Below, in pieces: positions 1,763 to 63,983 of a stretch of 64,000 nucleotides of DNA. Every line of letters starts with the position of its first letter. Position 1 is the stretch's first letter. Source of the stretch: Nanobdellota archaeon. GTDB lineage: Archaea; Nanobdellota; Nanobdellia; Woesearchaeales; GW2011-AR9. The notes beneath the pieces are model-generated. The model did not search any database. It saw nothing but the letters and a program-made list of their open reading frames with translations, and was not told the origin of the DNA. The DNA is taken from positions 53,322 to 117,321 of the forward strand of contig JAUYPX010000026.1 of assembly GCA_030697505.1 (NCBI GenBank). The letters are read 5' to 3'. The position numbers and the translations under genes were made by a program.

Positions 1763-1795
1763 ATATTCTCCTCCCAAAAAGACATTCTTAAATGT

Positions 1796-2734: not shown

Positions 2735-2757
2735 TTTTTTATTTCCCCATGCTAAAA

Positions 2758-5194: not shown

Positions 5195-5203
5195 TTTTCC
5201 ACC

Positions 5204-6703: not shown

Positions 6704-6756
6704 GCTAACCTTCCGCTAAAGAAAATTTTATAAATAGCAAGACTGCTCACCGCATC

Positions 6757-7599: not shown

Positions 7600-7610
7600 T
7601 AAGACTATCG

Positions 7611-8279: not shown

Positions 8280-8287
8280 ACAACCAT

Positions 8288-9313: not shown

Positions 9314-9382
9314 ACTTTATCAACAGAGTTGTCAGTTTAAAAGTTTTTTGAATACTAAATCTTTTTCTGATTAGGTTAAACC

Positions 9383-10345: not shown

Positions 10346-10429
10346 AGTAAATGACCCACATTGACCTTATTTTAAATAAGTTGTGAAAGTCCATAAAAAA
10401 TATAAACAAAGATTATGCTACTACGGAAG

Positions 10430-11206: not shown

Positions 11207-11292
11207 CTCTTTAAAATTCTGTGAAACAATTGCAACTCTTCATATATCTATTTTTAACAAGACTTAAAAATAAACTTCTTCTAACTGTGTAG

Positions 11293-12300: not shown

Positions 12301-12309
12301 TTTTTTCAG

Positions 12310-37439: not shown

Positions 37440-39437
37440 TTAATTCACCTTAAATAAAACTACATTTTCATTAGAGTAAATAGGCGTTAACTTAGTTGAA
37501 GTTAAAAATTCCTGGTAGCGTACCGGAAGCATAGCTTTTACCTCATCTTGGCCAAATTTATCGCTTAAATATTTATAATCCATATTTTTATTGATCATAA
37601 AATATTCATAATTATTGCTTAGTAGGAAAGAATATAACTCATCGTGATTTTTATAAATAATCTCCTTTCTGAAGTCCTTTACCTCCTGGCACCAAGAGCA
37701 GCTAAACCGGCCATACCCAAATACTAGCTTGTCGCGAGGCGCATATAGAAATACCTTGGAATTAAGAGGAATTTGCTTAAAAAGCTCAGCATACAGAAAT
37801 GGTTCCTGCGCGTTAGAGAACGATCCGGAAGTCGGCCAGATAGAAGTATTAGCTTCATATTTGTGCACCCCAGAAGTTAAGATCGCCCCTGCCACTATAA
37901 GCATAGTAAGAGCTACTTGCAACAACTTATTTTTCTTAAAGGTATTGATAAAAACGTAAGTTCCTTCTGCCGCTATAATAGAAACCGGAATCGCCAGCAA
38001 AAACCAGGCTCTAAACGCATCTCGAGCTATGGAAATCGGAAAAGTCATCCCGTTTACCACCCAGAAAGTATAGATCAGCCAAAACAGGACCACTATCCTC
38101 CAACAATTTTCTTGAGAGACTAAAGAAGAACGGTATTTGAAGACTAGATACGCTAATCCAAATAAAGCCAGGATACTAAGAACAACACCTATTCCTATCG
38201 GAGCATTTATCATATTATTTGATTTTGCCACAAAAAAATCTCCAAAGGTATATGCTCTTGATCCTGATCCTCCAGGATGAGTTATAGCTTTAATTACGGA
38301 GAAAAATTTTCCAAAGAAGCTAAACCCCGCAGTATTAGCCACAGCTTCCACACTTGAATTTGAAACCATGGTCTCTCGAAGTGCAACCGGCACCCTCACA
38401 TAGGCACCAATAAAAAATTGTAAAGAATATTTATGTATCATCGCCATCCACCAAAACAGAGAAAGAACCATCCCGCCAAAAATCCCTGCAACGTGATATT
38501 TCAAAAAACGATAGTGGACAACTGATGCTACCAATGCATAAATCAAGAGCATAGTGGTAAGTTTAATCGGTTGGGAGAGATTCTGGGTTACCCAGATGCC
38601 CGCGACCATCACTGCTAAGATTAAAGCCCATTTTTTATTTTCAAATGTCTTGTTAAAGGCATACAGGGCTGGAAAAAGAAGAGTAATGGTCATAGAGTGA
38701 GCCCAAATAAAATGGGAAAGATAGGAAGGAATAACTGCTAAGAAGAAAGTAGCGGCAAGAGCCTTGGTTTTATTCTGCATAAAACTATTCGCAAAAAAAT
38801 AAAAGAAAAAGAATCCTAAAGAAATAATCAAGGCATTAAAGAACTTTATAGTCCAATTAAGGTCTTGGGAAGTTTGGTGTAAAACACCCATCAGAACATC
38901 ATACGCAGGAGGATAGGGATCGATGTAGGAAAAAAATGACTCCGTTTCCTGAGCAGTAGTAGTAATTGGATTATATGCATCTTTGTGGAGAGCAACATAT
39001 TTAACTCCAACAGAATGTCCCCAGGGATCTTCATCTTCAAGATAAGGATAGGCAAAAGCTCCTGAAGCATAGACATAAAGAGAAACTGCAAAAATCAGTA
39101 AAACTGCAGCAACAAAAAGATTGCTTTTAGTTAAGGTTGGCTTAGGGATTTTGGTCGGAAATTTGAAACCATGCTTCTTACAGATTGTAAATCCTGCATA
39201 TAGTGGAACAATCAAGCTCAACAGGAGGAAAATTTTCCAATCTAAAGGAATGCGAAAAAAATTAATGATTATGGAAAGGATGGCAAATACGCCCAGGCCA
39301 ATTCCTATATTCATAATATGCCGCTCAAAAAGATCAGCTTTTGGATTTGCAGATTTAGAATATATAAAATAAGTAAGAGAAAAGCCAAAACCCCAAAGAT
39401 AAATGAAAAATAATAATATGGTTATAACGCTTATCAT
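37440..39437 (-). CDS. Large polytopic membrane protein, PMT_2/ArnT-like GT-C candidate
   Basis: YPYLEDEDPWGHS acidic loop motif and PYPPAYDVLMGVL (hPPLyy-like). 665 aa. Confidence 0.45.
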   Translation of the reverse strand: MISVITILLFFIYLWGFGFSLTYFIYSKSANPKADLFERHIMNIGIGLGVFAILSIIINFFRIPLDWKIFLLLSLIVPLYAGFTICKKHGFKFPTKIPKPTLTKSNLFVAAVLLIFAVSLYVYASGAFAYPYLEDEDPWGHSVGVKYVALHKDAYNPITTTAQETESFFSYIDPYPPAYDVLMGVLHQTSQDLNWTIKFFNALIISLGFFFFYFFANSFMQNKTKALAATFFLAVIPSYLSHFIWAHSMTITLLFPALYAFNKTFENKKWALILAVMVAGIWVTQNLSQPIKLTTMLLIYALVASVVHYRFLKYHVAGIFGGMVLSLFWWMAMIHKYSLQFFIGAYVRVPVALRETMVSNSSVEAVANTAGFSFFGKFFSVIKAITHPGGSGSRAYTFGDFFVAKSNNMINAPIGIGVVLSILALFGLAYLVFKYRSSLVSQENCWRIVVLFWLIYTFWVVNGMTFPISIARDAFRAWFLLAIPVSIIAAEGTYVFINTFKKNKLLQVALTMLIVAGAILTSGVHKYEANTSIWPTSGSFSNAQEPFLYAELFKQIPLNSKVFLYAPRDKLVFGYGRFSCSWCQEVKDFRKEIIYKNHDELYSFLLSNNYEYFMINKNMDYKYLSDKFGQDEVKAMLPVRYQEFLTSTKLTPIYSNENVVLFKVN

Positions 39438-45098: not shown

Positions 45099-46076
45099 TT
45101 ATTCTATTTTGCAGATCTCATGATTTTGCGCCGACTTTATGGCCAGCAAACACATCTTTGTGGTAAGGATATTCTCAGCAGAAAGATTGGAATGCACTTC
45201 TTCGCCCATATTTTTTTTATTGCAAAGATGGACAAAATATTTTAATTCTTCAAGCAAAGGCTGGTTTTTTCCGACCTGCGGATCACGAAAGGTTTCCTTC
45301 TTTTCTGTTTTATCTTCTTGGACCACCAGAGGGTGTCTTTCAATGACTTGATCTAAGAAATCAAGATAGAGTTTTTCTTTAGAGCCGATTATCCACATAT
45401 CTCTTTTCTTCAAGGGATGGCAGCAGCTAACCTCAAGATGGGCGCTAAATTTCCCATAGTCAATGGTTATGACGGAAGAATCTTCATTCTGTTTAGAGAT
45501 CAAATGCGAATTTCGAGCATAGATATTTTGCGGGCTAGGCTCTAGCAGGGTATTCAAAAAATCAATAAGATGCACGCCTAGATTAAAAATAACGCCTGAA
45601 TCCTTACGCGGCGGGACCGTAGAATGGATGTACCTGCCGGAGATGTAATGTATTTCACCGATCTCTGATAACAGCTCTTTCATCCTGTTGATGAGGGGAT
45701 TAAAGCGAAGAACGTACCCTACAGAAAGGATAGCTTTCTTTTCCTGGGCCAGCTCCATCAATTCCTGCACCTCCCGGTATTCAAAACAGAGCGGCTTTTC
45801 TACAAAAATATGTTTTCCCTGCAGAAGACATTCTTTAGCCACTTGGTGATGAAGGGTGGTGGGCACCACTATGGTTACTGCATCGACGAAAGGAAGCATC
45901 TCTTTATAATTTTGAAAAAATCGGATATTGTGCTTGGAGGCCAGCTCTCTCTTGCTTTCATCGATATCTGCAAGAGCGACCAGATGACAAGAGGAGATTT
46001 TAGATAAGTCTCGGAGATGGTTTTCGCCCCATTTTCCCGATCCTATTATTCCTATCTTAACCACTCTTAACCACAA
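45099..46076 (-). CDS. Gfo/Idh/MocA-family NAD-dependent oxidoreductase (WbpB-like nucleotide-sugar 3-dehydrogenase candidate)
   Basis: KIGIIGSGKWGENHLRD Rossmann N-terminus and EKPL motif (FVEKPLCF). Confidence 0.75.
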   Translation of the reverse strand: MWLRVVKIGIIGSGKWGENHLRDLSKISSCHLVALADIDESKRELASKHNIRFFQNYKEMLPFVDAVTIVVPTTLHHQVAKECLLQGKHIFVEKPLCFEYREVQELMELAQEKKAILSVGYVLRFNPLINRMKELLSEIGEIHYISGRYIHSTVPPRKDSGVIFNLGVHLIDFLNTLLEPSPQNIYARNSHLISKQNEDSSVITIDYGKFSAHLEVSCCHPLKKRDMWIIGSKEKLYLDFLDQVIERHPLVVQEDKTEKKETFRDPQVGKNQPLLEELKYFVHLCNKKNMGEEVHSNLSAENILTTKMCLLAIKSAQNHEICKIE

Positions 46077-46105: not shown

Positions 46106-47623
46106 TTATGATTCTAAGACCTCATATTTATAGATGGTCACACCTATGAATTTCCTTTCCTCTTTCAATTCGTATAACGAATCCAATCGCAGTTTAAAAT
46201 AATCTTTGGTGTGAAAATTATGGCTTAAAATTAAGTAAGCATCCCTTTTTTCTGAAGCTCTTTCTATCAGCAAGTAATCATCCTCACCTGGTGTTATCAA
46301 CCGCACTTCTTCAACATTGCCGGAATAGTAGTAATCAAAACATAACTTAGCTATAGTGGCGCGATGAAGAAAGAGCACGTCTGCCGAAGTAGCATGACTT
46401 TCTATGTACTCAGCAGCTTCATGAAATTGTTCCTTGGAATCGATATCATAATAAGTGTATAACTCCGCTGAGGCGCTTATCACTATAAGGATGAAAAACC
46501 CAGTTGCCAGGCTATTTTGTTTTATTCGCAATAAGATTCTAGAAAGTAGGATGTAACCTAAAGGAAGCAGAAAGAAGCCGAACCTGATGATATGGACAGA
46601 TGAAAAAAAATACCTGCTCCAGATAAGATCCATCATGATAAAAGAAAGCAGCAGCAAAGAGATTATTTTTTGGTTTGAAAAATAAGTGAAGATGCGTTTA
46701 AGATGGCCAATCAATATGTTCAAATTAATTTTATCGGCCATGACCAGATATAAAGTTATGAAATAGAATAAACCGAGAAAAGCTGCGACAACTACCGCCA
46801 GGGGAAGTAAATCAAAGCCTAATTTTTCAATCAATTTTCCCCCAAGGGATTTATACAGGAGAGGAAGCTGATAAAAGGCCAAGATGTTGAGCCAGGGTAA
46901 AAAGAGCAGAAAGACCATCAAAAGAGCTAAGAAGAACTTTGGAGAAAAAATCTGCCTCTGGAAGAAAGGAGAAACAGTATCTTTTTTCTTCTGCTTAAAA
47001 AAATAACCGGTAGAATAAAATACGATATAACCTGCCAGAATCGCCAGGCTTATAATGTGCGTATAGAGCAACAAAGCTACAGAAACCGAAAAGAACAAGG
47101 TGTTTAGAACAGACGGTTTTTTCATGAATGCAATAAAAGATAGGAGAGACAGCAGGAAAAATGCTGCGAACATACTGTACATCTTCGCTTCCTGAGAATA
47201 AAGTACAGAAGTATACGAAATACTGACCAAAAAGGCAGCCAACAACCCTTCCTTCCAGGAGAAGATTTTTCGTGCCAAAAGAAAGGTAAGAAAAACGGTA
47301 AGAACCCCAAAAAAAACAGAAAGGATACGTAAACTGATCTCTGAATATCCAAAATACTCCATCAACAGATGCTGAGGAAGGTAATACCCGATAGGATGGA
47401 CATCTTTCTTGAGAGTTTCAATTAGAAGATTAACAGGTTTTGAAGCATAATCAAGCGTAAAACATTCATCCAGCCATAAACTCTCTTCACCTAAATCGTA
47501 CAGCCTGAGGATGCCTGCTCCTAAAAGTATTATTGCTAATACCCAAGCTATAATGACTTTATCTCTCAAATCCTTCCTCATGACACCTTTTTTAGAAGAT
47601 GGTTTAAAAGATTTCTGAAGCAA
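46106..47623 (-). CDS. PMT_2/ArnT-like GT-C glycosyltransferase (GT39/GT83 family)
   Basis: LRLYDLGEESLWLDECFT first-loop DE motif and HPIGYYLPQHLL (hPPLyyWl-like). Confidence 0.6.
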   Translation of the reverse strand: MLQKSFKPSSKKGVMRKDLRDKVIIAWVLAIILLGAGILRLYDLGEESLWLDECFTLDYASKPVNLLIETLKKDVHPIGYYLPQHLLMEYFGYSEISLRILSVFFGVLTVFLTFLLARKIFSWKEGLLAAFLVSISYTSVLYSQEAKMYSMFAAFFLLSLLSFIAFMKKPSVLNTLFFSVSVALLLYTHIISLAILAGYIVFYSTGYFFKQKKKDTVSPFFQRQIFSPKFFLALLMVFLLFLPWLNILAFYQLPLLYKSLGGKLIEKLGFDLLPLAVVVAAFLGLFYFITLYLVMADKINLNILIGHLKRIFTYFSNQKIISLLLLSFIMMDLIWSRYFFSSVHIIRFGFFLLPLGYILLSRILLRIKQNSLATGFFILIVISASAELYTYYDIDSKEQFHEAAEYIESHATSADVLFLHRATIAKLCFDYYYSGNVEEVRLITPGEDDYLLIERASEKRDAYLILSHNFHTKDYFKLRLDSLYELKEERKFIGVTIYKYEVLES

Positions 47624-47681: not shown

Positions 47682-48614
47682 ATGGAATCTATCCCCGCAT
47701 CATCAAAAGTTAAACCTTCAAAAAAGCCGAAGGTCATCATTTCTATCCCGGCTTATAACGAAGAAAGAGACCTAGGAAGAACTATCGGCGAAATAAAAGA
47801 AACATTGAGAGAGACTTCTTACCATTATAAAATTTTAGTATTAAATGACGGAAGCAGGGATAACACCGCCAAGATCGCTGAAGAGCAAGGGGCGATGGTT
47901 GTCTCCCATCGGCGCAACAAGGGATTGGCAGAGACCTTCCGTACGGAGATGAAGGAATGTCTGGAACGCCAGGCAGATATCATCGTCCATACCGATGCCG
48001 ATGGCCAATATGATCCGCGGCATATTCCCCAGCTTATAGCGAAAGTGCAGCAAGGATATGATCTCGTCCTGGGCAGCCGCTTCCGTGGGAAGATCCAATA
48101 CATGCCTTTCACCAAACGCGTGGGAAACATTCTTTTTTCCAAAGTGTTAAGCTCTCTGGCCAAAGTGAGAATTACCGACTCGACCACGGGATTCCGGGCC
48201 TTCACTTCCGAGCTGGCCAGAGAGATAGATTTCATCAACACCTTTACCTACACTCAGGAACAGATCATCAAGGCAGCCAAGCAGGGCTTTAGGATCGCTG
48301 AGATTCCCATCGACTCAAGAAGAACCAGAAAAAGCAGGCTTTTCAAGAATCCGCTCCAGTATGCAGTCAAGGCTTGGATAAATATTTTTAGGATCTACCG
48401 AAACTACGAGCCGCTGCAATTCTTCGGAAAAATTGGATTGACTTTCTTCGGCATTGGCATCCTCTTGGGAGTTTGGCTCGTATACCGTTTTATCACTTTA
48501 GGTAATGTAGGAAGACTCCCTACGACCGTCTTAAGCGCTTTGTTTATGCTGGTGGGAATCCAGATTGTTCTGTTTGGTTTTTTAGCGGATATGATCAATA
48601 ATAGAAAGATCTAA
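47682..48614 (+). CDS. GT2 polyprenyl-phosphate sugar synthase (GtrB/ArnC-like) with C-terminal TM helices
   Basis: ISIPAYNEERDL, VLNDGSRDNT and C-terminal hydrophobic pair (GLTFFGIGILLGVWLVY...LFMLVGIQIVLFGFL). Confidence 0.8.
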   Translation: MESIPASSKVKPSKKPKVIISIPAYNEERDLGRTIGEIKETLRETSYHYKILVLNDGSRDNTAKIAEEQGAMVVSHRRNKGLAETFRTEMKECLERQADIIVHTDADGQYDPRHIPQLIAKVQQGYDLVLGSRFRGKIQYMPFTKRVGNILFSKVLSSLAKVRITDSTTGFRAFTSELAREIDFINTFTYTQEQIIKAAKQGFRIAEIPIDSRRTRKSRLFKNPLQYAVKAWINIFRIYRNYEPLQFFGKIGLTFFGIGILLGVWLVYRFITLGNVGRLPTTVLSALFMLVGIQIVLFGFLADMINNRKI

Positions 48615-48665: not shown

Positions 48666-49394
48666 TCATTTATTCTGTGCAGAAAAAAAATCATCATCAG
48701 CTTTCTGCAGTTTGATGAGCGTCGTAGCTAACTTCTTCACCATCTCTATCGTATGCATCGCCGCATAACATGCCAGACCAACAAATGGTTGATTAAGCAG
48801 AATGCAGAAAAACATGAGATTAAGAGGATGTTCTATGCGCACGAATCCAAATATGAAAACAGTTAATTTACTTCTTTTCCGGGGATTCAGCTGAGTCATG
48901 ATTTCTGCTACCCGTTCCCGCTGCTCTCCTTTGTAGGAGATCAAATTTAAGTTGAAAAGCTTGGCAAATACAAATGCGCCGACAGCTATTCCGCCTAAAT
49001 ACAATGAACGTAGGTCATTAGTCATCTTATATGTGCCAAGAGTCAAGCCGCATAGTACTGCGATTATAGTTATATGATGCGCGATCTGCTCAAGATACTG
49101 GCCTTTCAAGGTGGATTTATTGCGGTATCTAGCCAAATTGCCGTCGACACAATCAAAGAAATGTCCAAGATGGTAAATGACTATTCCTAAAAGCATCCAC
49201 TTATACAAACCGGTCGACAACAAAACTGCACCGGCCAAACCCAAAAATAACCAGAACAAGGTAACCTGATTGGAAGTGATGGGAGTATTGATGAACGGTT
49301 TGGTAAAATAAAATCCGATTTCATGAACTAATTTGTTTGAAAAACCCCAATATTCCTTTTTGCATTTTTCCCTGAGTTCGTTTATAGTGACCAT
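48666..49394 (-). CDS. CDP-alcohol phosphotransferase-superfamily membrane protein with a divergent signature
   Basis: DCVDGNLARYRNKSTLKGQYLEQIAH resembles D-G-x2-A-R-x8-G-x3-D-x3-D, but the last two Asp are E and H. It has multiple TM helices. Confidence 0.5.
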   Translation of the reverse strand: MVTINELREKCKKEYWGFSNKLVHEIGFYFTKPFINTPITSNQVTLFWLFLGLAGAVLLSTGLYKWMLLGIVIYHLGHFFDCVDGNLARYRNKSTLKGQYLEQIAHHITIIAVLCGLTLGTYKMTNDLRSLYLGGIAVGAFVFAKLFNLNLISYKGEQRERVAEIMTQLNPRKRSKLTVFIFGFVRIEHPLNLMFFCILLNQPFVGLACYAAMHTIEMVKKLATTLIKLQKADDDFFSAQNK

Positions 49395-49404
49395 GATTCT
49401 TTCT

Positions 49405-50142
49405 TTATTTTTTGTTTAAGTTATTAATATTACTAATGTTACTGATCATCTCGTGTTTTTTAGTAATATAATACCACATTACGATAGCATCCTGTTCTGC
49501 AGTTGGACTCTCAGAATTATCGTAGGGAATGGCATCCTTCGCTCTAGTCAAAGGGCTTATTATCCTGGTACGGTCACGTTCATCGATATCCTCGATTATC
49601 TTGCGAACCTCTTCCGGAGTATGTTTTGTTTTCTCCCCGGGAGGCAGCATTTTGAAGAACCTCTTTACTTTCACGTCCATGGAAGCATCCAAAAAGAATT
49701 TCCAATCGGCATTAGGAAATACCGTTGTTCCAGTATCACGCCCTTCGACAACAAAACCGCCTTGGCTGGCAATACTGCGTTGAAGCTCCAGAAGCTTTTC
49801 TCTGACCGCAGGAATGCTTGCGACTTTTGAAGCTAAAGAAACAACTTCATTTGAAGTTATGCTCGCAGCCACGTCCTCGCCGTTCAAAAATAAATGACTC
49901 TCGCCTTGGACTGATCTAAATTCCATAGTCACCGCTTTCATGGCCTTGATGATATCCTTCTCCTCTGCCAAACCTTTTTTTTTGACGAAGTATCCGATAG
50001 CGCGGAACATCGCTCCCGTATTCAGATACTGGTATCCCATCAGCTTAGCCAGCGCTTTTGCAGAAGTTGATTTTCCGGTCCATGAAGAGCCATCGATGGT
50101 AATGATCATCTTTTCTCTTTTCTTTCCGCCTTCCATGACCAA
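49405..50142 (-). CDS. cmk: Cytidylate kinase, bacterial type
   Basis: ITIDGSSWTGKSTSAKALAKLMGYQYLNTGAMFRAIGY aligns closely to E. coli Cmk (ITIDGPSGAGKGT...DSGAIYR). DERDRTRIISPL ~ ERDDRDRNRAVAPL. The ORF track uses a TTG start; the true start is probably an internal ATG near 50115. Confidence 0.8.
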   Translation of the reverse strand: MVMEGGKKREKMIITIDGSSWTGKSTSAKALAKLMGYQYLNTGAMFRAIGYFVKKKGLAEEKDIIKAMKAVTMEFRSVQGESHLFLNGEDVAASITSNEVVSLASKVASIPAVREKLLELQRSIASQGGFVVEGRDTGTTVFPNADWKFFLDASMDVKVKRFFKMLPPGEKTKHTPEEVRKIIEDIDERDRTRIISPLTRAKDAIPYDNSESPTAEQDAIVMWYYITKKHEMISNISNINNLNKK

Positions 50143-50199: not shown

Positions 50200-51351
50200 T
50201 CAACTGATTCTCTTTAATATATCTCGTAAAGCTCCTTCCGTAAGCTCCCGCGGATTGTTATTCACCCTCTCCGGATTAAATCCATGAGCAACAATGATAT
50301 CATGATGTTCTGGAGAGTTTATCTTGAGATCAACCAATCTTCTGGTAAGCCCGATCTGATCCATGAGATTATTTATCTTCTCTTGCAGCTGTTTAGAGGC
50401 CTGCACCTGAAAGAGCGAACATAATTCAGAAAGAGTTTTCTTGACAGATTCGGCGCCTCTTCCGTCAAGACAATCGTCATCGGTCACTGCACTATTGTAC
50501 AAACACATCTCTCCTAAAGTCAACGCGCAGGCATGGCCATGGGAAACTCCAAAATAAGAGGTCATCGGATATGAGACAGCATGGCAGGCAGTAGTCTTAG
50601 ACACATTTATCGCTTTTCCAGCCAGATTGGCTCCCAGCAGCATCGCTTCACGATTCGGTGCGGAAGGATTGTTCACCGCCGAGGCCAAATTATCCAGAAT
50701 TATCTTTATTGCTTTCCGGGCATATTCTTTAGATTCCTCTGTTGACTGGGTAGACCAATATGATTCCACGGCCTGGCATAATGCATCTATCCCTGTAGAA
50801 GCCGTGATATACTTGGGCAGATTGAAAGAAAGGTTTGGATCTAGAAAAACATATTTTGGCAGCATCCATCCCTGATGACCGAGAGAATATTTTGTTTTCC
50901 CGATGTATACGACGGCAAAATGTGTGGCTTCCGATCCCGTACCGGCGGTAGTGGGAATGGCCACAAAAGATTTCGGCTTATGAGCTGCAATCAATTTCTT
51001 AGTGATATAATCTTCCGGTACTTCATATTGAGCTGCAAGAAAATTAATCGATTTTGCTATATCAATGACGCTTCCTCCCCCGATAGCAATTACCAAGTCA
51101 CAGCCTGATCGTCTGAATAAAGCGATCCCTTTTTTAACATCTTCAAGCTGGGGATTGACTGAAAAATCAGAGAAAAAAATAACCTTGTAATCTGAAAGCA
51201 GGGATTCAAACATTTTTTGCGCTCCAGAACGTTGGTAAGAATTTTTCCCCGTCACTACAAAAACAGATGATGGTTTCTCCTTTTCTAAAACCTCACTGAG
51301 TCGAGCAAGACTTCCTGGACCGATATATTCATATTGCATCTTTATCTTCAA
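50200..51351 (-). CDS. Iron-containing alcohol dehydrogenase family (phosphonoacetaldehyde reductase candidate)
   Basis: GGGSVIDIAKSINFLAA Fe-ADH signature. 4-bp overlap with upstream ppd. Confidence 0.75.
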   Translation of the reverse strand: MKIKMQYEYIGPGSLARLSEVLEKEKPSSVFVVTGKNSYQRSGAQKMFESLLSDYKVIFFSDFSVNPQLEDVKKGIALFRRSGCDLVIAIGGGSVIDIAKSINFLAAQYEVPEDYITKKLIAAHKPKSFVAIPTTAGTGSEATHFAVVYIGKTKYSLGHQGWMLPKYVFLDPNLSFNLPKYITASTGIDALCQAVESYWSTQSTEESKEYARKAIKIILDNLASAVNNPSAPNREAMLLGANLAGKAINVSKTTACHAVSYPMTSYFGVSHGHACALTLGEMCLYNSAVTDDDCLDGRGAESVKKTLSELCSLFQVQASKQLQEKINNLMDQIGLTRRLVDLKINSPEHHDIIVAHGFNPERVNNNPRELTEGALRDILKRIS

Positions 51352-52484
51352 CTGCTTTCTTTTTGCAGAAATTCCATGAATTGTTTCTTATTTTCAAGAG
51401 GCGATTGAGTCGGCCTTCCAAGATTTTTACGCGCTCCTTTATTGCAGCGTATTTCCAATAACATAGGGCCGGTCTCCTGTTTCATTTTTAACAAGACTCC
51501 TTTGATCTCTTCAGCCGTTTCCGCTCTGAAAACAGCCTTATACCCATTTCCTTTTGCTATCTCTAAGATATCGATGGCATCAGCGGCAGTGGGTTGTCCG
51601 CCGACTGAATCGTGAGCAAAATTATTGAAGACGATATGATTAAAATTAACTGGCTGCAGTTTGCCGACCGTGGAAAGGATGCCCATGTGCATGATCAAGG
51701 CACCATCGCCATCAAAACAATACACCTTTCTATTCTGCTTCTGGAGAGCAATGCCTACCGCGATGGCAGAAGAATGTCCCATCGAGCCAACCGTCAAGAA
51801 ATCTTGGTGATGCCCTTTCCCGGTTGCTTTACGGAATTCAAACAACTCCCGCGAGGTTTTTCCTGTGGTAGAAACAATGATATCATCTTTATCAAGAAGT
51901 GATGCTACTAATTTAATCGCCTCTTCTCTAACCAACGGAAAATGAGTCTCTTGTTTAGTTTTTAAGGAGTAGGAATCAAAAGTCCCTTCCCTAACTACAA
52001 GAGCATAAGGTGTTTTGTGGTTATTCAGATGTTCTGCTGCTTTTTGCACCGCTGCCTTTGCTTCTTCTTCATTTTCAGGAAGAACAGCATAAGGAATCTC
52101 TAACACTTCCAGCAATGACAAAGTTATTCTTCCCATCTTGCGATGCTGAGGCTCATCTTTTCTGCCTGGTTCTGCTCTCCATCCGATCAGCAGCAGTAAC
52201 GGCAGAGAATAAATCTCTTTATCTGTAAGGGAAGTCAAAGGATTGACACAGTTGCCTAATCCTGAATTCTGCAGATAGACTACCCCTGCTTTTCCTGTCG
52301 CCAAATGATAGCCAGCAGCTAAGGCGATAGCATTTCCTTCATTTGCAGCAATAATGTGATCCTTAGCCGAAGTATTATCCGTGACATAGGCGCAGAAATC
52401 TTTTAGCAATGAATCTGGAACTCCGGCATAGAAAGTTAGGTCGTGTCCCTTCAACTGATCAAAAAAATATCGTGGTGAGATCAT
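51348..52484 (-). CDS. ppd: Phosphonopyruvate decarboxylase (ThDP-dependent)
   Basis: ThDP-binding GDG-X24-N motif (FDGDGALIMHMGIL...NNFAHDS) and N-terminal pyrimidine-binding domain. Operon context with PEP mutase. Confidence 0.75.
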   Translation of the reverse strand: MISPRYFFDQLKGHDLTFYAGVPDSLLKDFCAYVTDNTSAKDHIIAANEGNAIALAAGYHLATGKAGVVYLQNSGLGNCVNPLTSLTDKEIYSLPLLLLIGWRAEPGRKDEPQHRKMGRITLSLLEVLEIPYAVLPENEEEAKAAVQKAAEHLNNHKTPYALVVREGTFDSYSLKTKQETHFPLVREEAIKLVASLLDKDDIIVSTTGKTSRELFEFRKATGKGHHQDFLTVGSMGHSSAIAVGIALQKQNRKVYCFDGDGALIMHMGILSTVGKLQPVNFNHIVFNNFAHDSVGGQPTAADAIDILEIAKGNGYKAVFRAETAEEIKGVLLKMKQETGPMLLEIRCNKGARKNLGRPTQSPLENKKQFMEFLQKESS

Positions 52485-52507: not shown

Positions 52508-53404
52508 TTATAAAGATGATGAAAGAAGGTTATTGACTATATTAAGATAAGATTCCATCCTCTGCAAGCCGCTCTTCTCAACTAAAGCTACTCCGAAAGC
52601 AGTAGGCGCTTTGCCGGCTTTAATTTTGTTGCCATAACTCCTGGCCACCACATCGGACATGCGCAGATCAAAATTTGCTTTAAGCTTCTCTCGGTCATCT
52701 AATTCAAGCAGATAAGACTTGCCATCATCAATACAATCGGCGACAGTTAATGCCATTAAAGCAAGCTTATCTTTTCCATGAGCAAAATCGTTTCCGCTCG
52801 CTGCACAAGGATTTCCATACTCTTCAAACATAGCTAAAATACTGTGAGGATTGTTCGGATAGTTATATGCTTCAGACCAGGCTGAATAATGTCCCACATT
52901 ATTGAAGCCAGTTCTTTTAGCGATCATGTTCGCAATTTCCAGATAGGCATTATGCTGAGCCGCATCGGCAAGAATTTGAGCATCTAATTCTATAGCCAAA
53001 TGATAAAATGACAATTCTTTTTCTTCTTGATCAAATTCAACACCATATTTCGCAAAAGCATTGGAAAGATCGTGAACTAATCCCATCGCGTACCCCACTT
53101 TAGGAGAAGGCAGTTCCAAATCAGGATTTCTTTCAGAGATGGCTGCGACCAATTGTGAAGTAAGATTGCCGACGCGTAGAAAATGGGCCATCCTTTCATC
53201 TTTTTTAGCAAGCTGTGAATTTGCATCATACACGACCGCGCTAACATCTCTTGCCCTTAACTGCGTAGGATCTTCACGCATGATCTCAAAAACATGGTGA
53301 ACTTTTCTGGTCAGATCAGAAACGCCACTGCCCGGAGAGCGCTGCACCATATTTTCTCCGTCGTAGAGAAAAGGCACTAGAAATTGGATATCTGTCGAAA
53401 CCAT
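52508..53404 (-). CDS. Hypothetical protein, possible HD-domain metal-dependent phosphohydrolase
   Basis: Spaced H...HD...H...D residues (MAHFL...GLVHDLSNAF...FYHLAIELD). Weak. Confidence 0.3.
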   Translation of the reverse strand: MVSTDIQFLVPFLYDGENMVQRSPGSGVSDLTRKVHHVFEIMREDPTQLRARDVSAVVYDANSQLAKKDERMAHFLRVGNLTSQLVAAISERNPDLELPSPKVGYAMGLVHDLSNAFAKYGVEFDQEEKELSFYHLAIELDAQILADAAQHNAYLEIANMIAKRTGFNNVGHYSAWSEAYNYPNNPHSILAMFEEYGNPCAASGNDFAHGKDKLALMALTVADCIDDGKSYLLELDDREKLKANFDLRMSDVVARSYGNKIKAGKAPTAFGVALVEKSGLQRMESYLNIVNNLLSSSL

Positions 53405-53463: not shown

Positions 53464-54834
53464 CTAAATTTTATTTTTTCCTTCCTTGTTAAACCAAGGC
53501 ATTAGTTCGCTCACCGCGCGATCAGCATTTTCCTTTCCAATCAAAGAAAGCTCACGCTGCGGTTCGCCGGCAGCCCTTCCGCCTATCCTTAAGACTAGCA
53601 GCTTCCCATCTTTTCCACGGAAATTATGATGAACAAACGGTTTTAGGTACAGAGAATCGTCCGGATGAATAAAATCGTGATGCGTTTGTCCAGCAGAATA
53701 CCAATTGACATTTACTGGTGTTTTCCCAACATTATACACATATTGATGCAGGCCAACTTTTAGATCTAAACTGCCTACATCACTGCCTGCATCTTTCAGC
53801 ACCTCCATTTCCAAGGCTTTAGAATGAGGAAGATGACGTGTACCTGCTAATTCGACTAATTTGTATGCCGGATGAGTACTTGGACAATTCCATCTAAAAG
53901 TATCTTGATAATTCTTTACTATCACTTTTTCTCCTACCTTATTTGGCGGCAATAATTCCCTCGCATCAATATTCAAAGCTTCAGCTATAGATTCTAAGTC
54001 AACTCTATTTGGCAAAATATTTCCAGATTCATACCTTACTAAAAGAGCAACAGGAAGCGTAGTTCTCCATTCCAATTCCTCATAATCCATACTCGCTGCT
54101 TCCCTATGAAAGCGCAATAAAGAACCGAACGCTTTCATGGGAGTGGAAAAATCCATAGCATACTGCGAAGCTAACTCTGTTCCCAGCGCCGACAATTCTT
54201 GCTGAGTTTCCCCCGCTAATTTGTTGCCATAGGTCAAGGCGAGGATTAATCCGCTTTCTCCCGCATCGTTTTTGCGGGTAGCGAACGTGTGAGGCACAAA
54301 TGGAGTGATGTACATGGAATCACCGGTATTCATCACCGCTATTTTTTTCTTTCCATCTTCACCTTGGTAATAAAAATTAACAGGTCCCACGAAGTAGGTA
54401 AACTGATGCATGAAGTGGCCGTTGTTCCATTGCACTTCTGGATTGTCAGCCTCATCGTTATTGACAACACAAAGTTCTTTGATCCATTCCGGACGGAATT
54501 GGCTGACGCTGCTGGCGGCAGTATCGCGATATTCGTAATATGGTTTCCCGGCCCGTTCCATGACTCTGCTGCTCTGCGCTGATTCAGTTGCCCGCATGAT
54601 TTTAATGCCATTTGGAGCATCATCGCGCAGACAATAGAAATCACGTTCATTTACCGGCCAGATCTCTGTCGCGCGCTTGGCCACCTTCGCAGGAATTTCC
54701 CGTTCACCGCGCAAATAAGAATTAAATTTTTCGAGAGGAACATTAAGCTCGCGTGCCGCATCTTCTGGACGGCGTTTAAGATCGTTGATGATCCCTTGAA
54801 GATTCTGTCCGCTTCTTTTTTGATAATTGCCCAT
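53464..54834 (-). CDS. mpnS: Methylphosphonate synthase-like bicupin of the HEPD/MPnS family
   Basis: NNGHFMHQFTYF...TGDSMYITPFVPHTF parallels the HEPD NNGH...TGDSYVEPSYCPHTY block. Relative to the first His there is Gln at +4, Phe at +14, Ile at +36 and His at +42. No Glu ligand is present. Start is placed at the ATG preceded by a GGGAGG SD (Met7 of the ORF-track GTG-start ORF at 54852). Confidence 0.7.
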   Translation of the reverse strand: MGNYQKRSGQNLQGIINDLKRRPEDAARELNVPLEKFNSYLRGEREIPAKVAKRATEIWPVNERDFYCLRDDAPNGIKIMRATESAQSSRVMERAGKPYYEYRDTAASSVSQFRPEWIKELCVVNNDEADNPEVQWNNGHFMHQFTYFVGPVNFYYQGEDGKKKIAVMNTGDSMYITPFVPHTFATRKNDAGESGLILALTYGNKLAGETQQELSALGTELASQYAMDFSTPMKAFGSLLRFHREAASMDYEELEWRTTLPVALLVRYESGNILPNRVDLESIAEALNIDARELLPPNKVGEKVIVKNYQDTFRWNCPSTHPAYKLVELAGTRHLPHSKALEMEVLKDAGSDVGSLDLKVGLHQYVYNVGKTPVNVNWYSAGQTHHDFIHPDDSLYLKPFVHHNFRGKDGKLLVLRIGGRAAGEPQRELSLIGKENADRAVSELMPWFNKEGKNKI

Positions 54835-54848
54835 ATAGATTGCCTCCC

Positions 54849-56156
54849 TCACTCATCTCCATTAGGTATGAGCGTGATGATTTCCTTTATGGGCATGCAG
54901 AGTTCCTTGCTTGCCTCGTGACATCGCTTATGCTTTAAAATTGATTCTGCCGCCTTCACCATCGAAGGATAGGCGCTGCGCAATAGATGATTGGCATAAA
55001 TAACGATATTAACTCCGGCTTTCATGAGTTCCTCTTCAGTTACAGTAGCATAGGTGCTGGGTACAGCGATCAAAGGCACCCTATTTTCAAACTTCCGGTA
55101 TTCTTCGCAAAACTGCAGCACTTCATCAGGAGATTTCTCTTTGCTATGGATCATAATGCCGTCGGCTCCGGCTGCGATATACGCTTTCGCCCTAGCCAGA
55201 GCATCATCTATGCCTTTCTCCAAAATCAGACTTTCGATCCTAGCGATGATCATAAAGTCGTCAGACGCTTGAGCCTTCTTGCCTTCAGAGATTTTATGGC
55301 AGAAATTATCTATAGTGTCCTGGATTTGTTCTACTTCCGTCCCAAACAAGGAATTTCTTTTCGATCCGACCTTATCTTCGATTACTACCGCAGAAACGCC
55401 TAACCTTTCCAGCGTTTTCACCGTAAAACGGAAATGCTCGATCAGGCCTCCGCTGTCCGCATCTACGACCATGGGCTTGGAAGTCACTTCAAAAATTTCA
55501 CTGACCGTGTTGCTGATGGAAGTGATATCTACATATTCAATATCTGGCTTTCCTTTAGAGGTAGCATGGGTCAGACTGCTCAGCCAGGTCGCATCAAAAG
55601 TTTGCGGTACCTGGTTCTCATCTTTCACCATCGCTTTTTCGACAATAAGTCCGGTCAGGCCGTTATGAGCTTCCATCACCCGCACCATCGACTTGGCATT
55701 GAGCAGACGACGCAGCATATATCTGCGAACATCGGGAGTGACGCCTCGCTGCTTTACCTTAGTGATCATTTGAGTTGAAGAAATTCCCTGCGTATAAGCT
55801 GGTTCAATTACCTGGCCGCCCCATTCTTTCATCACCTCAATCACTCGTTCCCTTTTTTTGGCTTGTACGCCTGTTTTCCAGTCATCGCCATGGACAAAAT
55901 AATCTGGTTTCAATTCTTGCAGCGCCGGAATGTAATCATCATCTTCCTGCACGTAGACCCTGTTGACCATACGTATATTTTCAATAACTTTTTTACGCTG
56001 CTCAAAAGTCAATAATGGAAGCCGTTTGTAATTGGCGATAGCCCGATCAGTCAGAAGACCGACAATTACTTCGCCTAACTTACTCGCTTCATGAAGGATA
56101 TTCATATGGCCGTCATGCAATAAGTCAGCGGCCATGGGAACGTATACTGTTTTCAT
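54849..56156 (-). CDS. ppm: Fusion of an N-terminal cytidylyltransferase (HxGH nucleotidyltransferase, TagD/PntC-like) and a C-terminal phosphoenolpyruvate phosphomutase
   Basis: N-terminus AADLLHDGHMNIL (HxGH). C-terminal domain has IEDKVGSKRNSLFG (PEP mutase EDKxxxKxNSL) and IIARIES. A strong AGGAGG SD lies 7 nt upstream. Confidence 0.8.
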   Translation of the reverse strand: MKTVYVPMAADLLHDGHMNILHEASKLGEVIVGLLTDRAIANYKRLPLLTFEQRKKVIENIRMVNRVYVQEDDDYIPALQELKPDYFVHGDDWKTGVQAKKRERVIEVMKEWGGQVIEPAYTQGISSTQMITKVKQRGVTPDVRRYMLRRLLNAKSMVRVMEAHNGLTGLIVEKAMVKDENQVPQTFDATWLSSLTHATSKGKPDIEYVDITSISNTVSEIFEVTSKPMVVDADSGGLIEHFRFTVKTLERLGVSAVVIEDKVGSKRNSLFGTEVEQIQDTIDNFCHKISEGKKAQASDDFMIIARIESLILEKGIDDALARAKAYIAAGADGIMIHSKEKSPDEVLQFCEEYRKFENRVPLIAVPSTYATVTEEELMKAGVNIVIYANHLLRSAYPSMVKAAESILKHKRCHEASKELCMPIKEIITLIPNGDE

Positions 56157-56235: not shown

Positions 56236-56745
56236 TCACAAAGAGAAGTCTCTGTCTTTTATTTTTCGAGCTGGAACTCCGCAATAGACGCTGTTAGGGT
56301 CGACATCCTTAACTACCACGCTGCCCGCGCCGATGACAGAATTTGAACCTACCTTTATGTTTCCCAAAATACAAGAATTCGCACCGATATCAACTCCAGA
56401 ACCGATGATTGGAAATAGGGATCTTCTTTCTTCGATAGTCTTATTTTTACTTTTGTGCGCAGGTAAAAAGCGGTATTTGCTGCCGATGGTTACATTTTGG
56501 CTGATGATGCAATTTTCTCCCATGGTGCTGGCCCCAATGACTATTCCGATATAATGAGGGAACTTTGTTGACCAAGGTACCTGAGCATATGGAGAGATAT
56601 CGCATTTGAAAATGAATATCAATACTTTTCTGAATATTGTCCCAATACAGATTAAAAAAAATATGTTGGATATATAGAACGGCCTAACTAAATATCGTAT
56701 CAAAAATAGATGAATTTTGTCAAACATTTGCTTTAAAAGCGACAA
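56236..56745 (-). CDS. Hexapeptide-repeat acetyltransferase (serine/sugar O-acetyltransferase-like, CysE/WcaB family)
   Basis: IGASTMGENCIISQNVTIG...IGANSCILGNIKVGSNSVIGAGSVV hexapeptide repeats. Confidence 0.7.
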   Translation of the reverse strand: MSLLKQMFDKIHLFLIRYLVRPFYISNIFFLICIGTIFRKVLIFIFKCDISPYAQVPWSTKFPHYIGIVIGASTMGENCIISQNVTIGSKYRFLPAHKSKNKTIEERRSLFPIIGSGVDIGANSCILGNIKVGSNSVIGAGSVVVKDVDPNSVYCGVPARKIKDRDFSL

Positions 56746-61984: not shown

Positions 61985-62145
61985 GGCGCAAAAAAGATGA
62001 GTGGACAGCTTACCGGGATTCCCGCACGCTAATGCAGTACTGCCCCAGTACGGAGACGCTCTTAACTTCCGAGATCGAAACGGGATCGGGTGAACCGCGC
62101 CCCTATGGCCGTCCGAGAGATTCAATTGGGGGCTTATTTATAAAG
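61985..62145 (+). ncRNA. Candidate structured noncoding RNA or regulatory leader of unknown class
   Basis: A local GC-rich (>55%) island in a roughly 40% GC locus. Several stems: perfect palindrome GCAGTACTGC, CGGGA/TCCCG, and GCCCC...GGGGGC followed by a TTATTTAT run. The only ORF (93 aa) has atypical CG-rich codons. Confidence 0.3.
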
Positions 62146-62198: not shown

Positions 62199-63983
62199 GT
62201 GATCGACACAGCAATTATCATCGCCGGGGGCTTAGGGACTAGACTTAGGCCTCTCACCGAATCTACCCCAAAACCATTACTGCCCATACGGGGAAAACCA
62301 ATAATAGAGCACGTCATCAGGAATCTTAGGAAGCATGGAATCACTAATATCATCATTTCTATTGGATATAAAGCTGACCAAGTACAGGAATATTTCAAAG
62401 ATGGCAGCTCTCTCGGGGTAAATATCTCCTATTCCCTGGAAACTCAACCTCTAGGCACAGGAGGGGCAGTAAAACAAGCCTCAAAATTCCTTTCCAAACC
62501 TTTCTTCTTGCTCTGGGGTGATAATCTCATGGATATCAATATCTCCAAAATGAAAGAAGATTACCTCAATTATAACGCCGCTATACTTATGGCTCTTACT
62601 CATCGTGAGGATGTGGAAAACTTTGGGGTAGCCAAATTAGAACAACATAAGATCATCACTTTTGTAGAAAAACCGAAACGGGAAGAAGCTCCTTCTACCT
62701 TGATAAATGCCGGCGCTTTTATTGTTGATCCCTCTTGTTTGCAGCTTCTTCCAGAAGGGATATCCTCATTAGAGAAAGATTGTTTTGAGAAGCTTGCTCC
62801 GCAGGGAAAAATCGCCGCGCACATCCATCAAGGGCAGTGGTTTCCTACCGACACTTTGGAGAAATATTATTGGGCTAATACTGCATTTCAGCCTGATATC
62901 TATCTGCAAGAAAAGAAAGTGATCATCGCCGATGTCGATGACACTATCTGCGAAACTTGCCAGCAGATCTCTTCGGAGATGGCGGAACAGATTTCTCGGA
63001 TGATCAGACAAGGATATGAATTTGCCTTCATCAGCGGCACCAAAAGTGAAGACCTTCAGAAGATGATTTCCTCCAGAGTGAAAGAAAAACATCATCTTCT
63101 CGCTACTACCGGAACAAATTATTCCATCATCGAAAAAGATACCGTAAATGTCATATACAATAATTCCTTTAGCCAGGAAGAAAAAGAAGAGATTATGGCT
63201 GCCTTACAAAAACTTATCTCCAACTACGGGATTATCTCTTTAACTACCCCGGAAGATCAGCTCCAAGACCGAGAATCTCAGATCACTTTATCAGCTATCG
63301 GTAGAAATGCGCCGATAGAGGTTAAAAAGAAGTACGACCCTTCTGGAGAAAAACGCAAGGTCTGGACAGAATTCCTTAAGAAACATCTCGATGAAAATAA
63401 ATATGATCTTAAAATTGGCGGAACTACTTCCATCGACATCACTCGGAAAGGCTTAGATAAGGAATGGGGAATTAAAACCTTCGCAGAGCATCATAAAATA
63501 CCTCTAAATTCTATTGTCTTTATAGGAGATAAGATTTTTCCCGGAGGAAATGACTTCCCGGCAACCAGGATTGTAGACTGCATCTCCGTAAAGTCGCCTC
63601 AAGAAACATTGCAACAGCTGCGAAAAATAGAAATCTTAAGCAGAATCATCATCTCAGAAAGACCTTGGGGAGCATTTGAACGATTTACCGCAAACCAGAT
63701 CAGCACGGTCAAAATACTGGAAGTAAACCCGCAGCAGCGCCTTTCCTTGCAGTCGCATCAGCATCGGGAAGAATTATGGATCGCTCTTGATGATGGAGTG
63801 ATAGCCGAGATAAATGGAGTAAAACTATATCTCAAAAAAGGGGATAAGATAGTGGTTCCAAAAGAAGCCAAACACCGGCTCTCTTCCGAGAGCGGAACTG
63901 TCCGGGTCTTAGAGATAGCCTTCGGGAACTTTGATGAGAATGACATTACTCGCTATGAAGATGATTTTGGCAGAATGAAATAA
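62199..63983 (+). CDS. Trifunctional fusion: sugar-1-P nucleotidyltransferase, HAD-type phosphatase (PMM-like) domain, and type-II phosphomannose isomerase cupin (ManC-like)
   Basis: N-terminus AIIIAGGLGTRLRPLTESTPKPLLPI. The middle has HAD motifs (IIADVDDTICE...FIGDKIFPGGND). The C-terminal cupin has WGAFERF...LSLQSHQHREELWI...GDKIVVPKEAKHRL. Confidence 0.75.
   Translation: MIDTAIIIAGGLGTRLRPLTESTPKPLLPIRGKPIIEHVIRNLRKHGITNIIISIGYKADQVQEYFKDGSSLGVNISYSLETQPLGTGGAVKQASKFLSKPFFLLWGDNLMDINISKMKEDYLNYNAAILMALTHREDVENFGVAKLEQHKIITFVEKPKREEAPSTLINAGAFIVDPSCLQLLPEGISSLEKDCFEKLAPQGKIAAHIHQGQWFPTDTLEKYYWANTAFQPDIYLQEKKVIIADVDDTICETCQQISSEMAEQISRMIRQGYEFAFISGTKSEDLQKMISSRVKEKHHLLATTGTNYSIIEKDTVNVIYNNSFSQEEKEEIMAALQKLISNYGIISLTTPEDQLQDRESQITLSAIGRNAPIEVKKKYDPSGEKRKVWTEFLKKHLDENKYDLKIGGTTSIDITRKGLDKEWGIKTFAEHHKIPLNSIVFIGDKIFPGGNDFPATRIVDCISVKSPQETLQQLRKIEILSRIIISERPWGAFERFTANQISTVKILEVNPQQRLSLQSHQHREELWIALDDGVIAEINGVKLYLKKGDKIVVPKEAKHRLSSESGTVRVLEIAFGNFDENDITRYEDDFGRMK

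Follow-up and report, generated by a model that had tools for sequence, protein, structure and literature searches.

A methylphosphonate synthase orthologue in a phosphonate cassette of a groundwater DPANN archaeon, with a probable route to the cell surface

In oxygenated water, C-P lyase acts on methylphosphonate (MPn) to release methane. MPn production is known from marine Thaumarchaeota, SAR11 and a small number of further marine bacteria, and N. maritimus was reported to produce an MPn-modified exopolysaccharide (PMC9381506). MPn synthesis is described as dependent on a Phe and an Ile beside the Gln ligand of methylphosphonate synthase (MPnS) (PMC11978286, with reference to Born 2017). A groundwater study of 2025 reported that C-P lyase was expressed, did not settle where the MPn comes from and considered even a geological origin (PMC11978286). 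The MPnS alignment in the supplement of that ISME J paper contains the exact protein described here (HQ_C4_g0077.c0000.00094), and the paper states that the same diagnostic residues were checked; the host, carrier taxonomy and gene cluster are not given for the MPnS sequences in its text and supplements. The novelty of the present identification is limited by this listing. The original prediction placed the gene outside the few described lineages. This claim holds for the literature searched, in which neither DPANN nor Woesearchaeota were connected with MPnS by any paper. Genome databases already contain Phe/Ile MPnS-like genes from many phyla.

In the present study, we analyzed a 64-kb stretch of DNA (the window), the whole of which is a surface-glycan island. 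The mpnS reading frame was found at 53464..54852 as predicted, and its strand, which had not been stated, was minus. The maximal reading frame encodes 462 aa from GTG 54852; ATG 54834 is the more likely start; an SD-like GGGAGG lies 8 nt upstream of it, and the resulting 456 aa equal the NCBI annotation (MDP3698769.1). Using HMMER against the PDB, we observed that the product matched the crystallized Nitrosopumilus MPnS (6b9s) with 533 bits, an E-value of 4.6e-159 and 53% identity. The alignment ran end to end (query residues 9-460, 6b9s residues 11-456), and the active-site block contained no gaps. The class II 2-hydroxyethylphosphonate dioxygenase (HEPD) of S. albus (6b9r) scored 293 bits with 38% identity. 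The clade profile gave 675 bits for 6b9s versus 345 bits for 6b9r, and the class I HEPD PhpD (3g7d) reached 23 bits (E 3e-4) in the C-terminal half only. In NJ trees, the clade of the protein was the sister group of the thaumarchaeal one, which contains NmMPnS. These results agreed with the predicted identity, and the sequence indicated that the gene product is almost certainly a methylphosphonate synthase. It is an orthologue in a well-characterized, already known enzyme family; thus, there is no new biochemistry at the MPnS step.

The diagnostic residues were then located in the block NNGHFMHQFTYFVGPVNFYYQGEDGKKKIAVMNTGDSMYITPFVPHTF of the MPnS reading frame. Counted from the first His of the block, Gln lies at +4, Phe at +14, Ile at +36 and the second His at +42, exactly as claimed; the claimed NNGH-x38 spacer was in error, the distance from NNGH to TGDS being 29 residues. 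Residues were numbered from HMMER alignments to 6b9s and 6b9r and were also aligned by MAFFT with 120 + 150 relatives. The iron ligands H146 (54415-54417), Q150 (54403-54405) and H188 (54289-54291) form a 2-His-1-Gln triad that aligned gap-free to H148, Q152 and H190 of NmMPnS, and the Gln-pinning residues F160 (54373-54375) and I182 (54307-54309) corresponded to F162 and I184, all five codons being on the minus strand. The query therefore matched 5/5 diagnostic residues of NmMPnS, whose numbering in the original prediction was correct, as judged by the alignment to 6b9s. The equivalent sites of S. albus HEPD are H149/Q153/Y163/G184/H190, in agreement with the Tyr/Gly expected of class II enzymes. 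In the same HMMER and MAFFT alignments, a check of the kind proposed with the prediction, the query carried neither Tyr/Gly at the Gln-flanking positions nor the Glu ligand of class I HEPD, but Gln, Phe and Ile. In addition, K26, R100, Y108 and N143 of the query corresponded to K28, R102, Y110 and N145 of NmMPnS and were invariant across the clade; we take these residues to be the phosphonate-binding ones in HEPD/MPnS structures. The Phe/Ile test is discriminating, since two relatives of similar identity to the query (P0058 and P0115, 56-58%) carried Tyr/Gly. The rule itself reportedly rests on a single structural and mutagenesis study, that of Born in 2017.

The genes flanking mpnS encode the supply of its substrate. 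Upstream lies a fusion of a Fom1-like cytidylyltransferase (CT; aa 3-136, PF01467) and a PEP mutase (Ppm; aa 146-432, PF13714) at 54849..56156 on the minus strand. The Ppm domain scored 389 bits against TIGR02320 (cutoff 319.55), and the CT domain shared 57% identity with the Fom1 CyTase domain (5x3d, E 2.8e-46). A Fom1-type fusion is defined by PF01467 with HxGH and (R)TxGISTT and by Ppm with EDKxxxxxNS; the product carried HDGH, GISST and EDKVGSKRNS and was assigned to this type. Directly upstream of the fusion is a hexapeptide-repeat O-acetyltransferase (56236..56745, minus; PF00132, EpsC/CysE-like), whose upstream position is conserved in loci L008 and L009. Downstream of mpnS, the original prediction correctly named Ppd and an Fe-ADH, but it missed an orphan gene for a 298-aa protein (52508..53404, minus) between MPnS and Ppd. 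The orphan weakly resembled HD nucleotide-anhydride hydrolases such as YqeK; it is possibly a divergent metal-dependent hydrolase of the HD superfamily, which is defined by an HD fold with H...HD...D metal ligands. The phosphonopyruvate decarboxylase Ppd (51348..52484, minus; TPP_enzyme_N and _C) scored 499.6 bits against TIGR03297 (cutoff 312.5). The best NCBIfam match of the Fe-ADH (50200..51351, minus; PF00465 and PF25137) was Phn_Fe-ADH TIGR03405, with 196 bits, under the 423.7 cutoff; the protein is the probable phosphonoacetaldehyde reductase yielding 2-HEP, and Ppd was accompanied by an Fe-ADH in most MPnS loci examined. The predicted complete 2-HEP pathway was thus found, with Ppm, Ppd and Fe-ADH adjacent on the same strand. 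The nearest kin of these proteins differed, being Thaumarchaeota for MPnS and nearer Myxococcota and Marinicella types for CT-Ppm and Ppd.

Further downstream, the cassette encodes a (d)CMP kinase (49405..50142, minus; TIGR00017 181 bits, cutoff 135.55), which was found in cassettes L005-L008 and L010 with 78-79% identity, and a membrane protein of the CDP-alcohol phosphotransferase type (48666..49394, minus; PF01066, E 1.4e-11, 45.4 bits, cutoff 22). The motif of the latter, DCVDGNLAR-x8-G-x3-E-x3-H, departed from the signature D1xxD2GxxAR...GxxxD3xxxD4: D1, D2, G, A and R were kept, and in the alignment to the best PDB match (AF2299, 4o6m), D3 was replaced by Glu and D4 by His. A word-index search returned 28 close relatives; all subfamily members, down to 48% identity, had the Glu/His variant, and L002 and L031 likewise carried His at D4. 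The protein is, on its motif, a divergent, non-canonical relative of the CDP-alcohol phosphotransferases, whose chemistry is uncertain because the canonical third and fourth Asp are missing. Next to it are a GT2 polyprenyl-phosphate glycosyltransferase (47682..48614, plus; PF00535, DPMS/GtrB/ArnC-like), matching Dol-P-Man synthase 5mlz (1e-17), GtrB 5ekp and ArnC in the PDB, and a GT-C membrane glycosyltransferase (PMT_2; 46106..47623, minus; PF13231 30.1 bits, cutoff 26.1). The conserved block ends with a GFO/IDH/MocA sugar oxidoreductase (45099..46076, minus; PF01408 and PF22725). These three genes were syntenic in L005-L007, with 89-91%, 64-67% and 78% identity, respectively.

The ten-gene block was syntenic in the independent assemblies L005-L010, and MPnS, second in the operon, was kept in every cassette relative. 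The 11-kb cassette had a GC content of 0.42 versus 0.40 for the window, across which GC was uniform, so that composition gave no signal of horizontal transfer. The only RNA in the window was a 5S rRNA, with no tRNAs and no other phylogenetic marker. Scans of the window for sigma-70 promoters and terminators gave counts under the shuffled expectation and were uninformative.

Based on these results, we propose a pathway with good overall confidence as a whole (MPnS, a 2-HEP operon and surface transfer of CMP-MPn in a DPANN groundwater host). PEP would be converted to phosphonopyruvate by the Ppm domain, to phosphonoacetaldehyde by Ppd and to 2-HEP by the Fe-ADH. MPnS would act as a functional non-haem Fe(II), O2-dependent bicupin oxygenase in which Phe160 and Ile182 keep Gln150 bound to the iron, thereby directing the cleavage of 2-HEP to MPn and CO2 and not to hydroxymethylphosphonate and formate. 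We infer the fate of MPn in the host from the neighboring genes, which probably attach it to the cell surface. The Fom1-like CT domain would form a CMP conjugate of the phosphonate; in Fom1, CMP-HEP is the product of the PF01467 domain, and phosphonate tailoring as a rule proceeds through nucleotidyl activation (PMC6697681). The variant phosphotransferase may then move the methylphosphonyl group onto a hydroxyl group of an acceptor bound to the membrane, with release of CMP, which the CMP kinase would recycle. The most plausible acceptor is a polyprenyl-phosphate-linked sugar from the adjacent GT2. The GT-C enzyme may deliver the decorated sugar to the surface glycan.

An HEPD function, with hydroxymethylphosphonate and formate as products, would fit the bicupin family common to both enzymes, and class II HEPD-like sequences nest within the MPnS clade at comparable identity. 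This reading is extremely unlikely given the Phe/Ile where Tyr/Gly would be expected, the far higher score to NmMPnS than to SaHEPD, the 23 bits of class I PhpD with the clade profile and a ligand that is Gln, not Glu. For the host, we concluded that it is a DPANN archaeon of the Nanoarchaeota/Woesearchaeota type from groundwater, an assignment that rests on MAG binning (NCBI label Nanoarchaeota). Mis-binning of a contig with a thaumarchaeal or bacterial gene has a precedent in the 'Patescibacteria' locus L017, which shares 95.3% DNA identity over 8,976 bp with a Thaumarchaeota contig; several of the closest relatives bear the implausible label 'uncultured Methanosarcinales', and the window carries no marker gene. 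However, several MAGs that were deposited separately contain the same cassette and bear Nanoarchaeota or Woesearchaeota labels. The contig that carries the gene is 122.7 kb long, is labelled c0000 and belongs to a MAG designated HQ, and the GC content of the window is uniform. The architecture also differs sharply from thaumarchaeal loci, with Ppm and Ppd only 32-43% identical, and we therefore consider mis-binning very improbable. MPnS requires O2, whereas an anaerobic life is assumed for many DPANN; oxygen is present in the source aquifers.

A larger share of doubt attaches to the step after 2-HEP. The CT domain might activate 2-HEP and not MPn, since its sole biochemical precedent is 2-HEP (PMC6697681), the known substrate of the Fom1 CyTase to which it is 57% identical. 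The cassette might then install 2-HEP, or 2-HEP and MPn, on the surface, as HEP conjugates on exopolysaccharide are known, e.g., in Stackebrandtia (PMC8942020). Alternatively, a transient cytidylylation might be undone by the HD-like orphan, leaving free MPn as the end product; the weak likeness of this protein to YqeK would parallel FomD, which hydrolyses the CMP conjugate in fosfomycin biosynthesis. Against these alternatives, the retention of MPnS in every cassette relative indicated that MPn is evidently the selected product, and a Fom3-like B12 radical-SAM enzyme was absent from the cassette. The phosphotransferase and CMP kinase make sense only with a CMP conjugate used as donor. Taken together, these alternatives appear unlikely, though clearly less so than the two above, and we favor CMP-MPn transfer to the surface. 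Fosfomycin-type chemistry was also considered and rejected, as the radical SAM protein beside mpnS in the Woesearchaeota locus L002 was SPASM-type and not a Fom3-like B12 methyltransferase.

Assignment of the sample C4 MPnS genes to DPANN, with a complete pathway and plausible export or attachment, provides a concrete, testable biological source of MPn. An O2-dependent oxygenase and a dedicated 11-kb cassette are kept in genomes noted for extreme reduction, which suggests that decorating the surface is of importance to these archaea; it might help against phosphatases or phages, or in contact with a host. We tentatively put forward an undescribed route, which in its full form is doubtful: DPANN of oxygen-containing groundwater may coat glycans or lipids with MPn through Fom1-like CMP-MPn formation, the Asp->His phosphotransferase and a polyprenyl-phosphate-linked sugar. 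If so, DPANN would be the missing biological source of the MPn from which C-P-lyase-bearing Methylotenera and Methylomonadaceae make methane in those aquifers.

Compared with known systems, the protein resembles the N. maritimus MPnS (6b9s/6b9t) in its full-length bicupin with HTH-like linkers, H/Q/H triad, Phe/Ile pair, K/R/Y/N residues and linkage to Ppm, Ppd and an Fe-ADH, whereas the hosts differ (Thaumarchaeota versus DPANN). In the thaumarchaeal cluster (L004), Ppm stands alone and Ppd is split, and two sulfatase-family proteins and NTP_transf_3 enzymes are encoded as well; the DPANN cassette has the CT-Ppm fusion, CMP kinase, CDP-alcohol phosphotransferase and orphan protein. The S. albus class II HEPD shares the fold and 2-His-1-Gln triad but has Tyr163/Gly184 in place of Phe/Ile and makes hydroxymethylphosphonate and formate. 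Fom1 (5x3d) is likewise an N-terminal PF01467 cytidylyltransferase joined to a PEP mutase and followed by Ppd and Fe-ADH homologues, named Fom2 and FomC in fosfomycin biosynthesis; the Fom3 methyltransferase and HppE epoxidase of that system are absent here, and MPnS stands in their place. In PntC/AEP clusters with CDP-OH transferases, a phosphonate is similarly made, CMP-activated and passed to a transferase for the surface or lipid (PMC6697681, PMC8942020). Those clusters carry 2-aminoethylphosphonate and mostly PF12804 enzymes, whereas the DPANN cassette has no AEP transaminase, its phosphonate would be MPn, and its transferase motif is altered to G-x3-E-x3-H.

The window sequence contained the predicted open reading frame at 53464-54852, on the minus strand. 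The longest frame starts at GTG 54852, a codon that overlaps with the TGA of the gene before it as GTGA, and an ATG at 54834 lies six codons inside this maximal mpnS frame. ATG 54834 is the more likely start, because GGGAGG is located 8 nt 5' of it and because it yields the 456-aa product of the NCBI annotation. The active-site block NNGHFMHQFTYFVGPVNFYYQGEDGKKKIAVMNTGDSMYITPFVPHTF was found in the protein. The residue offsets of the original prediction, counted from the first His, were correct (Gln at +4, Phe at +14, Ile at +36 and His at +42), but its "x38" spacer was miscounted and is actually 29 residues long. The protein was then compared with all PDB sequences by phmmer. The best match was the methylphosphonate (MPn) synthase of Nitrosopumilus maritimus (NmMPnS, 6b9s/6b9t; E 4.6e-159, 533 bits), with residues 9-460 aligned to 11-456 of the NmMPnS chain. 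The Streptomyces albus 2-hydroxyethylphosphonate dioxygenase (SaHEPD, 6b9r) scored 293 bits, and HppE epoxidases were marginal matches. The identity was 53% to NmMPnS versus 38% to SaHEPD. The class I HEPD PhpD (3g7d) gave only 23 bits against a profile of the query clade, in the C-terminal half only. The diagnostic positions H146/Q150/F160/I182/H188 corresponded, in the chain numbering of the phmmer alignment, to H148/Q152/F162/I184/H190 of NmMPnS, exactly the spacing given in the original prediction, and to H149/Q153/Y163/G184/H190 of SaHEPD; thus the query has Phe/Ile at the gating positions where SaHEPD has Tyr/Gly. K26, R100, Y108 and N143 (Nm K28, R102, Y110 and N145), whose equivalents we take to be phosphonate-binding residues in HEPD/MPnS structures, were invariant in the query clade. 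With NmMPnS as the best PDB match and all five diagnostic residues present, the MPnS interpretation was borne out at the sequence level, at which the protein is an orthologue of the known, structurally characterised MPnS family.

The H-Q-F-I-H pattern was observed in 118 of the 120 best database matches. The other two (P0058 and P0115) read H-Q-Y-G-H and shared 56-58% identity with the query, as close as thaumarchaeal MPnS sequences. Overall identity therefore fails to separate the activities while the residues do, which argues that the Phe/Ile test does carry information. According to PMC11978286, which cites Born et al. 2017, MPn synthesis requires Phe and Ile adjacent to the Gln ligand. When 1.84 billion cluster representatives were searched exhaustively with HMMER, the MPnS/HEPD-like family proved small (499 representatives at E <= 1e-3). 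We aligned 129 sequences, namely 126 database sequences (mostly those representatives), the query and two PDB references; 94 read H-Q-F-I-H and 22 read H-Q-Y-G-H. In neighbour-joining trees, which were distance trees without bootstrap, the query fell in a tight clade with MAG sequences labelled Nanoarchaeota or Woesearchaeota, sister to the thaumarchaeal clade holding NmMPnS. Three SAR202-type homologues (Chloroflexi/SAR202 loci L035, L037 and L042) carried a hybrid H-Q-Y-I-H, from which the product cannot be predicted. A HEPD-II-like H-Q-Y-G-H copy in a Marine Group I thaumarchaeote SAG (L022) was nested within the MPnS clade.

We also scanned 185,579 species-representative genomes for mpnS loci. 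Phe/Ile MPnS-like genes were found in MAGs of Chloroflexota (including Limnocylindria), Myxococcota, Acidobacteriota, Omnitrophota, Marinicella and Alteromonadaceae, so by sequence data the family is far wider than "a few lineages". In the literature searched, MPnS is ascribed to Pelagibacterales, to a small number of further orders of marine bacteria, to Thaumarchaeota and to a "Crenarchaeota archaeon" (PMC9381506). No paper in that literature paired MPnS/mpnS with Woesearchaeota or DPANN, and phosphonates went unmentioned in a survey from 2026 that covered 208 complete Nanobdellota genomes. The claim of a producer outside the few described lineages held for this literature. The supplement of PMC11978286 (ISME J 2025) contains an MPnS alignment in which the exact query sequence appears as ">HQ_C4_g0077.c0000.00094"; a second entry there, HQ_C4_g0074.c0036.00658, closely resembles it and has the same NNGH...YITPFVPH block. 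That study detected MPnS in groundwater samples C4, C24 and E14, checked the triad and Phe/Ile residues manually, and left the source of groundwater methylphosphonate open; it neither named the organisms nor described the gene cluster. In effect, the identification as MPnS was already published in that supplement. What is new here is the DPANN attribution and a distinct, putatively cytidylyl-dependent cassette that encodes an orphan protein together with a variant phosphotransferase.

The identical NCBI protein, MDP3698769.1, is named [quoted passage not shown] and lies on a 122,665-bp contig. The closest loci in the scan came from MAGs labelled Nanoarchaeota (H51-bin025_1 and C4_metabat.bin.53) and Woesearchaeota (NC_groundwater_274). 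On the window alone, assignment of the gene to DPANN through a binning error is a possible alternative, since the sole marker is a stand-alone 5S rRNA gene at 62000-62116 (minus strand, 64.7 bits); no 16S/23S genes were found near it, and the whole 64 kb lacks genes for tRNA. Several TPA assemblies were also among the closest loci. These co-assembly MAGs (L007, L008, L010, L014 and L045) match the DPANN cassette and are titled "uncultured Methanosarcinales archaeon", probably a placeholder label that could mislead taxonomic surveys of mpnS. Elsewhere in the scan, positions 1-8976 of a "Patescibacteria group bacterium" contig (L017) shared 95.3% DNA identity over the full 8,976 bp with 2424-11396 of an mpnS-bearing Thaumarchaeota MAG contig (L013); the former is probably mis-binned.

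The predicted 2-hydroxyethylphosphonate (2-HEP) pathway neighbours were confirmed around mpnS, all on the minus strand. MPnS directly follows a cytidylyltransferase (CT)-PEP mutase (Ppm) fusion (54849-56156; N-terminal PF01467; TIGR02320 389 bits, above cutoff; EDKVGSKRNS), and is followed by an orphan 298-aa ORF without family assignment (52508-53404), Ppd (51348-52484; TIGR03297, 500 bits) and Fe-ADH (50200-51351). The block continues with a CMP kinase (49405-50142), a CDP-alcohol phosphotransferase family protein (48666-49394), a PMT_2 (GT-C) protein (46106-47623) and a GFO/IDH/MocA oxidoreductase (45099-46076), all on the minus strand, and a plus-strand GT2 (47682-48614), for which the best-matching solved structures are those of Dol-P-Man synthase, GtrB and ArnC. 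This ten-gene block was syntenic across independent assemblies, with identities of 87-97% (CT domain), 83-89% (phosphotransferase) and 89-91% (GT2). No AEP transaminase was found near the cassette. In a Woesearchaeota relative (L002), an opposite-strand gene for a 512-aa radical SAM/SPASM protein (11562-13100, minus strand) lies between mpnS and ppd in place of the orphan gene, and the CMP kinase is absent.

The phosphotransferase signature reads DCVDGNLAR-x8-G-x3-E-x3-H. In an alignment to AF2299 (4o6m), Glu stands in place of the third signature Asp, and His in place of the fourth, the proposed catalytic base. This Glu/His substitution was invariant in every phosphotransferase relative down to 48% identity, and D...D was restored in two more distant relatives. 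The fourth-position His also occurred in the transferases of L002 and L031, which are MPnS-linked too but more distant. The remainder of the window is a surface-glycan island with GT2, GT4, a flippase, DegT aminotransferases, a GDP-mannose dehydratase, C-methyltransferases, a carbamoyltransferase and a second PMT-type enzyme. At the thresholds used, Pfam gave no match for five large minus-strand ORFs of 423-665 aa within this island (3923-5194, 12310-13662, 24651-26513, 32685-34541 and 37440-39437). At 62199-63983 (plus strand), a triple fusion of sugar-phosphate nucleotidyltransferase, phosphomannomutase-like HAD and mannose-6-phosphate isomerase C-terminal cupin, in that order, resembles a GDP-mannose pathway on a single polypeptide.

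By homology, Ppm, Ppd and Fe-ADH would make 2-HEP, which MPnS would convert with O2 to MPn. The PF01467 domain would activate the phosphonate as a CMP conjugate. A CMP-phosphonate corresponds to a CDP-alcohol in phosphonate form, so the phosphotransferase would transfer its phosphonyl group onto a hydroxyl of the acceptor, releasing CMP that the adjacent CMP kinase could recycle. A lipid-linked sugar, later passed to a surface polymer, is suggested as the acceptor by the conserved polyprenyl-phosphate glycosyltransferase and GT-C enzyme. The main uncertainty is whether the CT domain takes 2-HEP rather than MPn. 2-HEP has biochemical precedent, Fom1 forming CMP-HEP from CTP and 2-HEP (PMC6697681); we prefer MPn as the substrate because MPnS is retained throughout the relatives. 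The identity of the phosphonyl acceptor is the second uncertainty.

PF01467-Ppm fusions make up about 24% of Ppm proteins (PMC6697681). By sequence, the CT domain (aa 3-136; 55749-56150, minus strand) resembles the crystallised CyTase domain of Fom1 (5x3d), with 57% identity over 134 residues (E 2.8e-46). Such identity is unusually high for hosts as distant as an archaeal MAG and Streptomyces wedmorensis. The thaumarchaeal cluster (Nitrosotenuis DW1, L004) has a different architecture, in which Ppm stands alone, Ppd is split, and two sulfatase-family proteins and NTP_transf_3 are present. The DPANN Ppm/Ppd shared only 32-43% identity with the thaumarchaeal proteins but 48-64% with their counterparts at loci of Marinicella and Myxococcota where CT and Ppm are fused, so the cassette may be a mosaic. 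An MPn-bearing surface polymer would agree with the report that N. maritimus makes an exopolysaccharide modified with MPn (PMC9381506).
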